In this document: in pieces, positions 17,089 to 20,534 of the stretch
Layout: the number at the start of each line of letters is the position of its first letter
Position numbering within the stretch: the stretch's first letter is position 1
NCBI GenBank assembly: GCA_024275415.1
Contig: JAJRZD010000105.1
Location: 22,685-54,684 of the forward strand
Length of the DNA stretch: 32,000 bases
Direction: 5' to 3'
Origin: an archaeon
GTDB taxonomy: Archaea; Asgardarchaeota; Thorarchaeia; Thorarchaeales; Thorarchaeaceae
Position numbers and translations under genes: made by a program
Notes under the pieces: generated by a model
The model's database searches: none
What the model was told of the DNA's origin: nothing
Seen by the model: only the letters and a program-made list of their open reading frames with translations

Positions 17089-17580
17089 TCACGGTATCTC
17101 CCTGAGCATGATGATTGCTGGTGTCGAATCGTAGTAGTAGAGGGATATCCTTCCCCCAGTCCTGAAACCAAGCTTCGTGTAGAATTGATAGCCTTCCACA
17201 TTGTCATGATCAACATCCACGAAAAGTGCCCTTTTGTCGTGGTCAATCCCGTATTGAATCATCGCCTCGCAAAGTGCCGATGCTATCCCTTGCCGTCGGG
17301 CGTTCGTGTCAACGACCAGCATTTCAATCCACAGCCTGCCTTCTTCCTCGACGCCCATTACTGCTAACCCAAGGGTATGTTCAGGTTGATCAGGTACCAC
17401 TGCAAGATAGGCTATCCATGCATCAAGGTCAAGGAAGCTCTGGAGCCATTCTTGAGTGACCCATTCCCTGATATCATGGAGACCTAGGGCTTCGGCGGAC
17501 TTGAGGATGTGCTGTGCGTCTTGGGATTGCACTATCTGGACATCCCGTGTGAAACCACTCCTCGCGCTCTCACCGGACAC
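17089..17580 (-). CDS. GNAT family N-acetyltransferase
   Basis: Motif A LVVDTNARRQGIASAL and motif B N..GYQFYTKLGF. Confidence 0.9.
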   Translation of the reverse strand: MSGESARSGFTRDVQIVQSQDAQHILKSAEALGLHDIREWVTQEWLQSFLDLDAWIAYLAVVPDQPEHTLGLAVMGVEEEGRLWIEMLVVDTNARRQGIASALCEAMIQYGIDHDKRALFVDVDHDNVEGYQFYTKLGFRTGGRISLYYYDSTPAIIMLREIP

Positions 17581-17599
17581 CCTTGGTCACCACCAATCT

Positions 17600-19696
17600 C
17601 TAGAAGTCGTAAATCACGCTCTCCACACCCTTCAAGGATTCATTGGACTCGAGGATGACTCGTGTCATCTCAGTCTTTCGTACTGTGAACATGACTGATG
17701 AGTAGGGTGCCTTGTTCAGTTGGACATGCGTCGTATAGGTCACTGGAGAATATTTGCCATGATAGTTCGAAGTAGTCTTGTTCAATATCACTGCGTAATG
17801 CCATTTCTCAGTCGACCTCTCTAGAATCTCCACATCAAGCATTTCTAGCAGGTAATTCGCCTTGAGCTTTTGCATTCCGGACGACTCAAAATTAATCAGT
17901 CCAATCCCACCAATCCTAAGCATCGAGAGACCTCTCGATAGGAACAAAGCAAATGCTTCAATGGTAAAGTCGGGATCAGCCACAAAGAGGTCAAACTGTT
18001 CCTGGTCGAGCGGCAGTGCTGAACGCAAGTCTACCTGTTGAATTCTGATGTTGAGGTTCTCTTCCTGTGCTATGAGTGCTATCAATGCACAAGTGTACGG
18101 GTCGACCTCAAGTAGGGTGACCTCGATACCTCGCCTTGCTAATGAAACAGAGATGAGGTCGTCATCGCCCACCATCAAGACTCTCTGTGGCTCAAATCGC
18201 AGGATATGGCGAAGCTTTTTGAGATGCGCGCTGGGCATGAGCGGGGCCTGCCCAAGTGTGTAGTCCAACACTTTTCGCCGAGCAAGGAGCGCTACTGTTT
18301 CGTTGAACCAAGGATCATCGGACTTGTCGATTCTCAGGAACATGGACTCGCTGTGCGAGTCAGGTTCAGCTACCATTACTGATGGTTCAAGATACCGACT
18401 TGTGGCCGGGCTTGTTATCTGAGGCTGGGGGCCATCCGAAACCATGCCATCATCACGATTCGTGGTAAACGCATCAAGGACATTAATTAGCTGTGAATCT
18501 AGCATTTTTTGGGTGTTGGTGAGGATATTGACGAGCTCGTGGAACTCCACAGCATTGGTGTCGATGATTCCTAATGCTAGCCTGTAGAGCAGCTCCATGC
18601 TTCTCTCGCTGAAGGCAAATAACAGGTTCTTGTACTTCTGCGTTCCTATCGTCTGGGCTATTGCGATTGTGTCGTCCGGGTTCACTACGACATATATACC
18701 ATCACGCAGTTTGGCAGGTCTTGCTTCTGCATCCATCTGTAACAGGCTCTGATAGTCTATGTGCAATGGATTCCAGAGCGACGGTGCCACTTTTTTCTTT
18801 CTCTTTCTAGGTGGTTTCAGCTCTCCTGCCATTATCCGTACGGCTTTTACAACAGATGCCTTTACTCTCCTTTTGCGTATGAACCTGGCAGCAGCTGCCA
18901 GTCCAAGTAGTACAACGAGGGCCACAACAAGGTTAATGAGCAATGTCTGGATCCGAGCTTGTGTTGCAGCTTCATCGATATCGATAGGATAGCTTGACTC
19001 AAGAAGCACTCCTCGCTCTTCCCAGTCAAAATTACCTACAGATGTTAAAGCACGAGCAGTCCATAATTCAGCAACGAAATATCCCGTTTCTGGGTCGTAG
19101 TAATAGGAATCATCAAAAGTGATGGTGAACGAGCCGTCAGGATCGTATTCCGAATCATTGATGGTCTGCTGGACTCCCTCGGCCCGAACTTCGATGACCT
19201 CGATGATATTGATGAAGTCCTTCTGAAAGTGCGTCAGACCTTTTACCTCGTATTCGTTCCCAAGAATACTAATCTTGGTGCCTACGGGTGTATCAGGGTC
19301 AATCCTAAACCATGTGTAGTCGAACTTGTAATATGTTTTGTAATTCGTGGGTGCATCTATCGTGTTGTTGATGTATTCGCGAGTCTGTCCGTTGATGGTG
19401 AATTGGTGAGATGTTTCCTCATAGAGAGAGTTGTCCTCATTATCAGAATAGGAGTAGTTACGTTCCATGTTCCATGTGATCAAGTCGCCAGAGATACTAT
19501 CAACGGTATAGGTCCTCGTTTCGATCTCTGTTTCGGTATAGTCCTCGTAATCCCTTGAAGAACCTTGGAGATACGTTGTGAACTCGACTTTGAAGTAGTC
19601 GTCGAGCGAGTATTGCATCTCTGCTGAAACCTTCACAGGTGATAGTGTAAGCATCCCAATTACAATCAGTACCACGAACCACTTCTTGCGTACCAT
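17600..19696 (-). CDS. bpsA: Single-pass membrane protein: signal peptide + ectodomain + TM + C-terminal branched-chain polyamine synthase (BpsA/DUF43)-like aminopropyltransferase domain
   Basis: C-terminal ~230 aa has LGQA, VLMVGDDDLISVSL (GDDD at 18158..18169), LLEVD, VDLRSALP, FDLFVADP, LFLSRGLSML, matching BpsA motifs in order as I recall them. The symbol applies to this domain only. Confidence 0.8.
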   Translation of the reverse strand: MVRKKWFVVLIVIGMLTLSPVKVSAEMQYSLDDYFKVEFTTYLQGSSRDYEDYTETEIETRTYTVDSISGDLITWNMERNYSYSDNEDNSLYEETSHQFTINGQTREYINNTIDAPTNYKTYYKFDYTWFRIDPDTPVGTKISILGNEYEVKGLTHFQKDFINIIEVIEVRAEGVQQTINDSEYDPDGSFTITFDDSYYYDPETGYFVAELWTARALTSVGNFDWEERGVLLESSYPIDIDEAATQARIQTLLINLVVALVVLLGLAAAARFIRKRRVKASVVKAVRIMAGELKPPRKRKKKVAPSLWNPLHIDYQSLLQMDAEARPAKLRDGIYVVVNPDDTIAIAQTIGTQKYKNLLFAFSERSMELLYRLALGIIDTNAVEFHELVNILTNTQKMLDSQLINVLDAFTTNRDDGMVSDGPQPQITSPATSRYLEPSVMVAEPDSHSESMFLRIDKSDDPWFNETVALLARRKVLDYTLGQAPLMPSAHLKKLRHILRFEPQRVLMVGDDDLISVSLARRGIEVTLLEVDPYTCALIALIAQEENLNIRIQQVDLRSALPLDQEQFDLFVADPDFTIEAFALFLSRGLSMLRIGGIGLINFESSGMQKLKANYLLEMLDVEILERSTEKWHYAVILNKTTSNYHGKYSPVTYTTHVQLNKAPYSSVMFTVRKTEMTRVILESNESLKGVESVIYDF

Positions 19697-20121
19697 TATG
19701 TTCCCCTATCTATTCGTATGATATTCATTTTGTCGTGCGGGATATGTTCCTCAAGGTAAGCTACCATCCTTTCAGCCTCTGAGGTTTCACCACAAGTAAA
19801 GATGTCTATGACAATCTTATCGAACTCGGGCCATGTATGCACACTGATGTGACTCTCAGCGAGCAAAGCGAAGGCTGTGGTTCCGCCTACCTGCTCCTCC
19901 TCGCCAAGTACAGTCGAGAACTGGTGTGAGGAGAAATGTAGTTGCCGCATGCCACCTTGTTCAATCAGGATAGGCAGTATCTTTTCCCATGTATCCCTTG
20001 TGTGAAATCGAGAGTCTCGCACTCCAGATACATCCACAAGAATAGAAACGCCTACTGTCATCCTGCTTGCATCTTCTTGAAATGATATAACCCTTTCACA
20101 AACTTTGAAACTACCACTCAC
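19696..20121 (-). CDS. speD: Pyruvoyl-dependent S-adenosylmethionine decarboxylase proenzyme (class 1B); alternative start at 20061
   Basis: Self-cleavage motif LAESHISVHTWPE, DIFTCG, C-terminal RG. Confidence 0.88.
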   Translation of the reverse strand: MSGSFKVCERVISFQEDASRMTVGVSILVDVSGVRDSRFHTRDTWEKILPILIEQGGMRQLHFSSHQFSTVLGEEEQVGGTTAFALLAESHISVHTWPEFDKIVIDIFTCGETSEAERMVAYLEEHIPHDKMNIIRIDRGT

Positions 20122-20534
20122 TCGGTTATCGGCTTGTCCTTGAGGAATTCTCCAAGTTTGCTGTCAATGCCCTTGATATGCTCAATCAGCCAGTTCAGTA
20201 GGTACGTGTTGATCGATTTGCCGAGGGCGGGTGTTGGACCTTCCTCCTCGAAGTCTTCAATCATATGCTTCACCATGTCCTTGAACTCTTTGTGTTGTGC
20301 GAGATGAAGATCCATGGCGGGATAGTTGTGTTCCTTCATGTGTTTCTCTTCGGTAGAAAAATGGAAGTCTGTATAGTCGCTCATAAAACTAAGAGTGTTC
20401 AGAGTGACCTCGGGGCTTTGGTGCGAATCTACCGCCTTTGAGATGGCATTGATTCTCTTGATGAGCTCCTTGTGCTGCTCATCTATCAAGTCTACATTCA
20501 CAGAAAGGCTATCATCCCATTCGATCGTATCCAT
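20118..20534 (-). CDS. Bacteriohemerythrin (single-domain di-iron O2-binding protein)
   Basis: W....SV..DLIDEQHKEL, HFSTEEKHM, YP....HLAQHKEF, WLIEHIKGID: a full set of His/Glu/Asp iron ligands. Confidence 0.93.
   Translation of the reverse strand: MDTIEWDDSLSVNVDLIDEQHKELIKRINAISKAVDSHQSPEVTLNTLSFMSDYTDFHFSTEEKHMKEHNYPAMDLHLAQHKEFKDMVKHMIEDFEEEGPTPALGKSINTYLLNWLIEHIKGIDSKLGEFLKDKPITE

Follow-up and report, generated by a model that had tools for sequence, protein, structure and literature searches.

A predicted three-gene module of S-adenosylmethionine decarboxylase, a membrane-anchored BpsA-type fusion protein and an N-acetyltransferase in a Thorarchaeaceae archaeon

The window analyzed here is a 32,000-nucleotide stretch of contig JAJRZD010000105.1 from the genome assembly of a Thorarchaeaceae archaeon (GCA_024275415.1). 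It holds, between positions 17,089 and 20,534, a run of four open reading frames (ORFs), all on the minus strand, which an original prediction made from the DNA letters had described as a translationally coupled, self-contained operon of a hemerythrin gene, speD, a bpsA-like fusion gene and a gene for a GNAT-family N-acetyltransferase, together encoding a polyamine module. The ORFs lie where that prediction had placed them and their identities were upheld by Pfam and NCBIfam models, with which all gene families were assigned, the junctions being read directly from the sequence. Comparison with relatives, however, indicates that the real feature is a three-gene module, in which speD, the fusion gene (termed bps) and the GNAT gene form a conserved and self-contained unit with the hemerythrin gene outside it. 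With a probability of roughly 0.6, the module is an accessory operon, probably under its own promoter, that would carry out aminopropyl transfer dependent on decarboxylated S-adenosylmethionine (dcSAM) at the cytoplasmic face of the membrane, the acceptor being left unspecified. The four ORFs are as follows.

19696..20061, minus strand: speD, class 1b S-adenosylmethionine decarboxylase proenzyme of 121 amino acids (aa) when read from the ATG at 20061
17600..19696, minus strand: bps fusion, 698 aa, predicted type I membrane protein with a BpsA-family catalytic domain
17089..17580, minus strand: GNAT, N-acetyltransferase of 163 aa with a GTG start at 17580
20118..20534, minus strand: hemerythrin, bacteriohemerythrin of 138 aa, the upstream neighbor

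The three module genes are closely packed. The SpeD stop codon TAA (19698-19696) and the ATG of the fusion (19696-19694) have one base in common, giving TAATG, and the GNAT GTG lies 19 nt past the TAG of the fusion, with GGTGGTGA, a good match to a Shine-Dalgarno sequence, preceding the GTG within that gap. Both junctions are thus as the original prediction had read them. The spacing between speD and bps is also close in relatives, where the two genes overlap by 4 nt in G016 and L029 and are 2 nt apart in G005 and 26 nt apart in L028. Of the translational coupling that had been proposed for the whole run, the part between speD and bps holds and that between bps and GNAT is plausible, while that between hemerythrin and speD does not hold.

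Gene neighborhoods were compared in 41 related genomes, 24 of which are from the family of the window genome (G000); G003, G005 and G006 are from the same genus as the window and G016 is from another genus of the family. All three genes were found in these five genomes (5/41), with speD immediately upstream and GNAT immediately downstream of the fusion wherever the contigs show it, and in 0 of the 36 others. A profile of the partner GNAT gave 209-234 bits only in the same five genomes, always for the gene in the adjacent position, and all other GNATs in the 41 genomes reached 57 bits or less. The co-occurrence and adjacency of the three genes therefore indicate that they are inherited as one accessory unit, and the conserved neighborhood that the original prediction looked for among Asgard relatives is seen for speD, bps and GNAT. 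A database search gave 31 homologs of the fusion, most of them full-length and with 32-51% identity, from metagenome-assembled genomes of Thor-, Odin- and Hodarchaeales, from a Promethearchaeote and from filamentous cyanobacteria (∼37% over the whole length), the latter being Leptolyngbya PCC 6406, KIOST-1, Nodosilinea and PCC 7376. The complete speD-bps-GNAT set is present in two further contigs, L028 and L029, while the fusion and GNAT genes occur without an adjacent speD in an Odinarchaeon, in one other archaeal contig and in Leptolyngbya PCC 6406, where the GNAT gene overlaps the end of the fusion gene. In every context examined, a GNAT ortholog is found directly downstream of the fusion. 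The cyanobacterial proteins form one clade in the tree (support 94/76). The archaeal sequences, however, collapse into an unresolved polytomy and the outgroups sit on very long branches, so that the tree does not name a transfer donor.

The separation of the module from the hemerythrin gene turns on the start of speD, for which two further features of the window are needed.

20121-19696, minus strand: longest SpeD-like ORF, opening at the GTG at 20121
20085..20090, minus strand: TTATAT, a TATA-like box called by eye, which precedes the speD ATG by 24-29 nt and is a candidate promoter for speD-bps-GNAT

The letters GTGA, in which the hemerythrin stop and the speD start had been taken to overlap, do exist at 20121-20118, but the GTG has no support from orthologs as a start codon. 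SpeD orthologs are 122-131 aa long and their alignment to the window ORF begins only at residue 20/21, and in G005 a stop codon closes the frame upstream of speD, with ∼140 nt between hemerythrin and speD; the ortholog lengths and this closed frame make the GTG at 20121 an improbable start. The orthologs begin at the position of the ATG at 20061, and with this ATG as the likely start of the window gene, 56 nt separate speD from the hemerythrin gene. Similar A/T boxes are seen by eye 12-30 nt upstream of speD in G005, G016, L028 and L029, and in G016 and L028 the box comes just after a GC hairpin plus T-run. The arrangement suggests that speD begins its own transcription unit.

SpeD is very probably a true S-adenosylmethionine decarboxylase (AdoMetDC) that supplies dcSAM, because its residues, its genomic setting and its co-occurrence all agree. 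It matches PF02675 with 84.7 bits and passes the AdoMetDC equivalog TIGR03330 (84 bits, cut-off 75.65), and, numbered from the ATG at 20061, it contains the Glu69-Ser70 self-cleavage site, His75, Pro78 and Cys90. The motif AE-S70-HISV-H75-TWPE...FT-C90-G aligns with the T. maritima enzyme and with 2III, and matches S63/H68/C83. The protein is similar to class 1b AdoMetDCs (T. maritima 1TLU, PDB 2III) in its length (∼120 aa) and in having the ES cleavage site, His, Cys and Pro, and differs from them in a divergent N-terminal half and in GEEEQVGG, a short acidic stretch inserted ahead of the cleavage site. It also differs from the canonical SpeD of other Asgard genomes, which scores 117-132 bits, in its lower score and in being dedicated to the module rather than to the spermidine synthase SpeE.

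The assignment as S-adenosylmethionine (SAM) decarboxylase was made in the original prediction with the caveat that SpeD may be an arginine decarboxylase (ADC) paralog. In the fullest form of this alternative, SpeD would be an arginine or ornithine decarboxylase (SpeDA/SpeDC), the Rossmann domain of the fusion would be that of a methyltransferase or 3-amino-3-carboxypropyl transferase, and there would be no aminopropylation at all. In its favor are the lower score of SpeD noted above, a weak match of the fusion to Methyltransf_25 (E 0.0015), and the presence of SpeD without SpeE, which is the pattern by which SpeDA and SpeDC were flagged (PMC10407285). A proline that is fully conserved in true AdoMetDCs is, however, not conserved in the SpeDA arginine decarboxylases (Li et al. 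2023, PMC10407285), and Pro78 in HTWPE, which would correspond to this diagnostic residue, is present in the window protein, where the motif ESHISVHTWPE...FTCG is intact and the equivalog cut-off is passed. Moreover, the neofunctionalized SpeDA and SpeDC occurred in genomes without canonical ADC and ornithine decarboxylase (PMC10407285), whereas the window genome encodes a SpeA-like protein. Since this is by similarity a PLP (pyridoxal phosphate)-type ADC, accompanied by an agmatinase-like gene, an ADC role for SpeD is unnecessary. SpeD also co-occurs strictly with the fusion and hence with an aminopropyltransferase-type domain, and that domain is closer to BpsA than to methyltransferases, as described below. 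The alternative is therefore regarded as highly improbable, and SpeD is taken as the source of dcSAM.

The fusion protein is predicted to consist of the following parts.

19622..19696, minus strand: signal peptide or N-terminal hydrophobic segment, residues 1-25, ending VSA|E, from hydropathy and alignment
18950..19621, minus strand: extracytoplasmic all-beta barrel, LmcA-like, residues 26-249, with no Pfam family
18881..18949, minus strand: transmembrane helix, residues 250-272, hydropathy up to 2.79
18326..18880, minus strand: cytoplasmic juxtamembrane domain, residues 273-457, with no family match
17603..18325, minus strand: BpsA-type Rossmann catalytic domain, residues 458-698, with C-terminal I-Y-D
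18158..18169, minus strand: GDDD motif (Gly510-Asp513), aligning with Gly157-Asp160 of BpsA from Thermococcus kodakarensis (Tk-BpsA)

Sequence and modeled structure both place the catalytic domain within the BpsA_C family. The fusion matches BpsA_C (PF01861) with 67.4 bits against a cut-off of 27, a profile of 27 fusion homologs matches Tk-BpsA with an E value of 3.6e-17, and residues 458-698 superpose by VIA on residues 102-345 of Tk-BpsA with a Z of 21.3, a root-mean-square deviation (rmsd) of 3.4 Å and 24% identity over 226 aligned residues, the structural alignment extending to the C-terminus (model 399 to BpsA 345). BpsA structures are the closest (Foldseek E 5e-12) and methyltransferases reach a Z of 16.8 or less for the same domain, which counts against a methyltransferase, as does the GDDD motif, invariant in 27/27 aligned family members. 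In BpsA, Asp159 and Asp160 form salt bridges to and position the aminopropyl group of dcSAM (PMC12979288). As for the acceptor site, D574 and Y634, which correspond to Asp225 and Tyr290, do not vary within the family, and E604, which corresponds to Glu259, is either E or Q.

The known BpsA enzymes (EC 2.5.1.128; T. kodakarensis TK1691 and Thermus thermophilus; PDB 5XNC, 5XNF, 6J27) therefore have in common with the window protein the Rossmann domain, GDDD, the acceptor-site Asp225, Tyr290 and mostly Glu259, and also a genomic link to SpeD. However, BpsA is a soluble, cytosolic protein of ∼350 aa from (hyper)thermophiles, while the window protein is a 698-aa predicted membrane protein with an ectodomain, with an unrelated juxtamembrane domain instead of the BpsA N-domain and with an obligate GNAT partner, and is found in Asgard archaea and Leptolyngbya-type cyanobacteria. 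With these differences in architecture, N-domain, C-terminal carrier region, genomic partner and ecology, the protein is not to be classed as a BpsA ortholog, even though its catalytic domain belongs to BpsA_C. The NCBI name given to the fusion homologs is only "bis-aminopropyl spermidine synthase family protein." The fusion proteins form a clade in the tree (support 95/95), set apart by a long branch from the short BpsA_C proteins that other Asgard genomes encode. These short proteins (387-479 aa frames, at G030:C1:418680-419811, G040:C4:108346-109482 and G031:C64:12433-15242) adjoin canonical SpeD or SpeE, and hence canonical-type BpsA genes also occur in Asgard genomes.

The membrane topology of the fusion was predicted from hydropathy and charge. 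The hydropathy scan gave a signal-like stretch at residues 5-25 and a single transmembrane helix at residues 250-272, followed by the basic RFIRKRRVK...KPPRKRKKK on what would be the cytoplasmic side according to the positive-inside rule. Because this strongly basic stretch comes right after the helix, residues 26-249 are predicted to face outward and residues 273-698 to be cytoplasmic, as in a type I membrane protein. The model of the cytoplasmic part has a predicted local distance difference test (pLDDT) value of 88 and a confident fold, except for loop 119-131 of the model. Within it, the juxtamembrane residues 273-457 fall outside the BpsA structural alignment, and they gave no Pfam match (E up to 1) and no usable match in an ESM Atlas feature search.

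The AlphaFold2 model of the ectodomain (pLDDT 93.9) is an all-beta barrel with long antiparallel strands. Its best match among solved structures is M. smegmatis LmcA (Foldseek E 9e-7, TM-score about 0.5; by VIA, Z 12.5 and rmsd 4.3 over 191 aligned residues), and other structural matches are the vitellogenin/ApoB/MTP barrels, CD36/LIMP-2, LolA, RseB and, with similar Z, generic 12-strand barrels, while DUF3108 and DUF3068 proteins are among those in the AlphaFold DB. The elongated, extracytoplasmic barrel of LmcA encloses cavities for which lipid binding has been proposed (PMC8972800). The LmcA protein (MSMEG_0317, DUF3068-type, PDB 7N3V) and the ectodomain are both extracytoplasmic barrels tethered to the membrane, but they are only 9-11% identical, LmcA has no cytoplasmic enzyme domain, and the ligand role is putative in both. 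Binding of a hydrophobic ligand by the ectodomain is hence a lead from modeling and not a result.

The third protein of the module matches Acetyltransf_1 (PF00583) with 51.3 bits against a cut-off of 20.7, and its archaeal and cyanobacterial orthologs are 36-53% identical. Invariant motifs of this family are EEEGR-WI, a basic R-R/H segment before the CoA-binding G-[IV]-A/G, and a YY pair; among nine orthologs, R95 and Y148-Y149 are invariant and Arg96 is present in 8/9, and R96 and A100, invariant in an alignment of five sequences, vary in one ortholog. The triple-Glu patch would suit a cationic substrate. The nearest relatives of solved structure are protein N-alpha-acetyltransferases (NATs) and RimI, with Thermoplasma Ard1 at 1e-13, followed by Naa30, Naa50 and RimI, while polyamine acetyltransferases in the PDB match at E 1e-7 to 1e-8. 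With the Ard1/Naa10, Naa30, Naa50 and RimI proteins (PDB 4PV6, 6YGA, 9MTO; E 1e-13 to 1e-12), the window GNAT has in common the acetyl-CoA motif region and the C-terminal YY-D--A segment, and it differs from them in the family-specific EEEGR-WI and in its strict linkage to an aminopropyltransferase fusion. It falls below the curated cut-offs for both PaiA (NF053587, 25.5 vs. 250 bits) and RimI (47.3 vs. 86.4 bits). The low PaiA score is not evidence against activity on amines. The polyamine-acetylating off-switch that the original prediction saw in this protein is thus possible but finds no specific support. A complex prediction of the cytoplasmic region of the fusion with the GNAT gave a score of 0.01, which has no bearing on whether the two proteins bind.

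An exhaustive profile search with the ectodomain revealed a second protein family, of ∼530-600 aa, in which the ectodomain is followed by a transmembrane helix and a C-terminal GNAT domain. This GNAT domain is not closely related to the window GNAT, and neither the ectodomain nor the linker of these proteins gave a Pfam match at E up to 1. Sequence comparison thus links the ectodomain with a GNAT in two ways, through fusion in these proteins and through strict gene adjacency in the module. The family has many representatives (e.g., P0039, P0040, P0044, P0045 and P0056; loci L031:7001-8656 and L032:7001-8668), whose genes lie in an operon other than the module and are followed by two conserved genes without a Pfam family (∼390-400 aa and ∼510-550 aa), and the sequences appear to be GC-rich.

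What the module would contribute to metabolism has to be judged against the polyamine genes of the organism and its relatives. The window genome (92.9% complete) contains one SpeD and one BpsA_C protein, both those of the module, one agmatinase-like and one SpeA-like protein and one deoxyhypusine synthase (DHS). The SpeA-like protein (613 aa) matches biosynthetic ADC from end to end (E 7.6e-103), with 345.2 bits, which is below the equivalog cut-off of 369, and a pyruvoyl ADC of the PdaD type was sought and not found in this genome. No Spermine_synth/speE gene was found anywhere in the window genome, which bears out and extends the earlier observation that the window has none. Among the 24 family genomes there is no convincing speE, the best matches having 36 bits or less compared to 166-202 bits in other Asgard lineages, and nspC, of the carboxyspermidine decarboxylase (CASDC/nspC) route, was not found in any of the 41 genomes. 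Within the family, speD is limited to the five genomes with the module, plus a weak 25.4-bit AdoMet_dc hit in G019. DHS, on the other hand, is present in 23/24 family genomes and the module in only five, and since DHS is nearly universal while the module is patchy, the module is not the family's general basis for hypusination. A side puzzle is that the family has DHS but no recognizable spermidine pathway to supply the aminobutyl donor for hypusine.

These gene contents bear on a reading in which the fusion is a substitute spermidine or aminopropylagmatine synthase that feeds DHS, with the GNAT buffering polyamines in the manner of SpeG/SSAT. The lack of speE in the genome and in the 24 family genomes and the lack of nspC would be in keeping with such a substitute, as would the presence of the DHS, SpeA-like and agmatinase-like genes and the conservation of acidic and aromatic residues at the acceptor site. 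The distribution of DHS (23/24, compared to five for the module), however, means that most relatives do without the module. In addition, Leptolyngbya PCC 6406 keeps the fusion and the GNAT although it has canonical SpeD and SpeE: one 440-aa open frame elsewhere in its genome (G041:C1:1782056-1783180) gives both an AdoMet_dc match of 142.5 bits and a Spermine_synth match of 212.8 bits and looks like a SpeD-SpeE fusion protein. A SpeD-SpeE fusion has been reported for Pelagibacter. A housekeeping function in the cytosol would also not explain the conserved ectodomain, the transmembrane helix and the dedicated GNAT, which itself is far under the polyamine-acetyltransferase cut-offs. On balance, the substitute-synthase reading appears unlikely. 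Within the family, SpeD is found only where the fusion is, and there is none beside the Leptolyngbya fusion, as would be expected if the fusion needs dcSAM. A dedicated speD in genomes with no other SpeD, and none beside a housekeeping SpeD, is the pattern of a dcSAM-dependent enzyme distinct from spermidine synthesis. Because of the contrast between near-universal DHS and the patchy module and the coexistence with SpeD-SpeE in Leptolyngbya, the module is probably not for ordinary, housekeeping spermidine synthesis. It also probably does not produce the branched polyamine of thermophiles. The designation as a polyamine module may be too narrow, in that the acceptor may not be an ordinary polyamine.

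The mechanism proposed for dcSAM-dependent aminopropyl transfer at the membrane is as follows. SpeD would cleave itself at Glu69-Ser70 and decarboxylate SAM to dcSAM, as its intact motifs suggest. By homology to Tk-BpsA, the cytoplasmic BpsA-type domain would bind dcSAM via GDDD and the aminopropyl group would be moved to an amine acceptor held by the conserved acidic and aromatic residues. The GNAT may acetylate either the product or the acceptor at a primary amine, a step proposed from co-inheritance only, and the outward LmcA-like barrel might, more speculatively, bind a hydrophobic or envelope ligand and thereby localize or regulate the enzyme. The simplest candidate for the acceptor is a di- or polyamine originating from the SpeA-like ADC and agmatinase.

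Several observations weigh against this scheme. The BpsA_C match spans only profile positions 45-155 of 243, the N-terminal domain of BpsA is not recognizable in the fusion, and Tyr316 of the acceptor site could not be mapped since the sequence alignment does not cover it. At the C-terminus, the family has an invariant I-Y-D and a variable extra D/E in place of the acidic carrier cluster of Tk-BpsA (E339/D342-E345). If the acceptor were spermidine, as it is for BpsA, the genome would offer no route to it, having neither speE nor nspC. By sequence, the GNAT stands closer to protein N-alpha-acetyltransferases than to polyamine acetyltransferases, and the matches of the ectodomain are moderate (TM-score 0.4-0.5, Z 12.5), on a level with generic 12-strand barrels. 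Finally, the promoter is a putative one that was called by eye.

Some of the same observations would fit an acceptor that is not a polyamine. In one such reading, the module writes an aminopropyl or N-acetylaminopropyl mark at the membrane, on a lipid head group, an envelope precursor or a protein. The enzyme appears to be anchored in the membrane with a barrel similar to LmcA, for which lipid binding is putative (PMC8972800), the GNAT is nearest to NATs and RimI, which act on terminal primary amines of macromolecules, and the module is an accessory one, which cyanobacteria carry alongside normal polyamine genes. The conserved D/E/Y residues of the acceptor site, however, fit a small polyamine, as in BpsA, and the ectodomain and the catalytic domain are on opposite sides of the membrane, and a mark of this kind is considered quite unlikely. 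A further and similarly improbable variant is a receptor-type pair, in which the barrel acts as a sensor for a lipid or envelope ligand and thereby gates the aminopropyltransferase, the acceptor is non-classical, and the GNAT caps the product. If true, this would represent a new dcSAM-dependent modification, common to Asgard archaea and filamentous cyanobacteria by way of horizontal transfer.

To our knowledge, dcSAM has essentially one known use, namely polyamine synthesis by soluble aminopropyltransferases. The module would provide a SAM decarboxylase that is dedicated to a membrane-anchored BpsA-like enzyme with an obligate acetyltransferase, in a lineage that otherwise is without a SpeD/SpeE pathway, and the pair of fusion and GNAT is common to two domains of life, archaea and cyanobacteria. 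The closest conceptual precedent is the combination of bacterial SpeD with fusions of major facilitator superfamily (MFS) transporters and spermidine synthase-like domains (MFS-SpdSyn), which Li, Kurihara, Kim, Liang and Michael reportedly described in 2019 under the title "A polyamine-independent role for AdoMetDC" (Biochem J 476:2579, reference 46 of PMC10407285), with no spermidine being made. Those clusters reportedly also have AdoMetDC beside a membrane-bound aminopropyltransferase-like fusion, in genomes lacking an ordinary spermidine synthase, which implies a non-canonical aminopropyl acceptor, but they have a SpeE-like fold, a polytopic MFS part and no conserved GNAT, whereas the window protein is BpsA-like and single-pass with an ectodomain. 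If the acceptor of the module is not a polyamine, this would be the second example of a polyamine-independent role of AdoMetDC, after that reported for these bacterial fusions, and if it is a polyamine, the module would give mesophilic Asgard archaea a new route to (acetyl)polyamines, which may be under signal control. No description of the fusion architecture or of its pairing with a GNAT was found in the open-access literature, most subscription journals being outside the scope of the search. Since homologs are present in cultured Leptolyngbya (PCC 6406 and PCC 7376), the question is open to genetics and metabolomics with no need for an Asgard archaeon in culture.

The hemerythrin gene upstream encodes a well-supported member of its family (PF01814; bacteriohemerythrin NF033749, 116.8 bits vs. 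a cut-off of 84), in which all seven di-iron ligands can be read in the translation (H21, H58xxxE62, H77xxxH81 and H119xxxxD124). Its proposed membership in the operon is not sustained, as the adjacency is limited to the genus and the overlap depends on the doubtful start codon. The gene adjoins the module only within the genus of the window, with the ∼140-nt spacer in G005, and is 1.8 kb away in G006. It was absent beside the module in G016, L025, L027, L028 and L029, and likewise in the Odinarchaeon and the cyanobacteria. In G006, an ORF of 553 aa (L022:1602-3263) with a C-terminal zinc ribbon and a probable coiled coil lies between hemerythrin and speD, and therefore this junction is not fixed even within the genus. 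From these neighborhoods, the hemerythrin gene appears to be a genus-specific neighbor only.

Next to the hemerythrin gene, a pirin gene (window 20596-21453, minus strand) is split into two ORFs of the same frame by a TGA at 21103-21105 (...GSLS*FQLWANLP). The pirin ortholog of G005 reads through with Gly at this position (...RMAGFQLWANLP). The TGA is probably a nonsense mutation or an assembly error, with recoding as a further possibility. Upstream of pirin, window 21532-23893 (minus strand) encodes a polytopic membrane protein of 240 aa and an Atg22-like MFS transporter. In G005, the ortholog of the 240-aa protein is co-linear with pirin and hemerythrin, and that of the MFS transporter is on the opposite strand; neither ortholog was found at the G016 locus.

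On the other side of the module, the GNAT gene is followed by a T-rich stretch and then by a gene for a PLP enzyme of Cys/Met metabolism (PF01053, E 7e-119; window 15787-16977, minus strand). This gene has its own TATA-like box, TATTATAATA, at about 17008-17017, and its ortholog in G005 is ∼5 kb away from the GNAT gene. A link of this enzyme to methionine/SAM or methylthioadenosine (MTA) recycling is possible.

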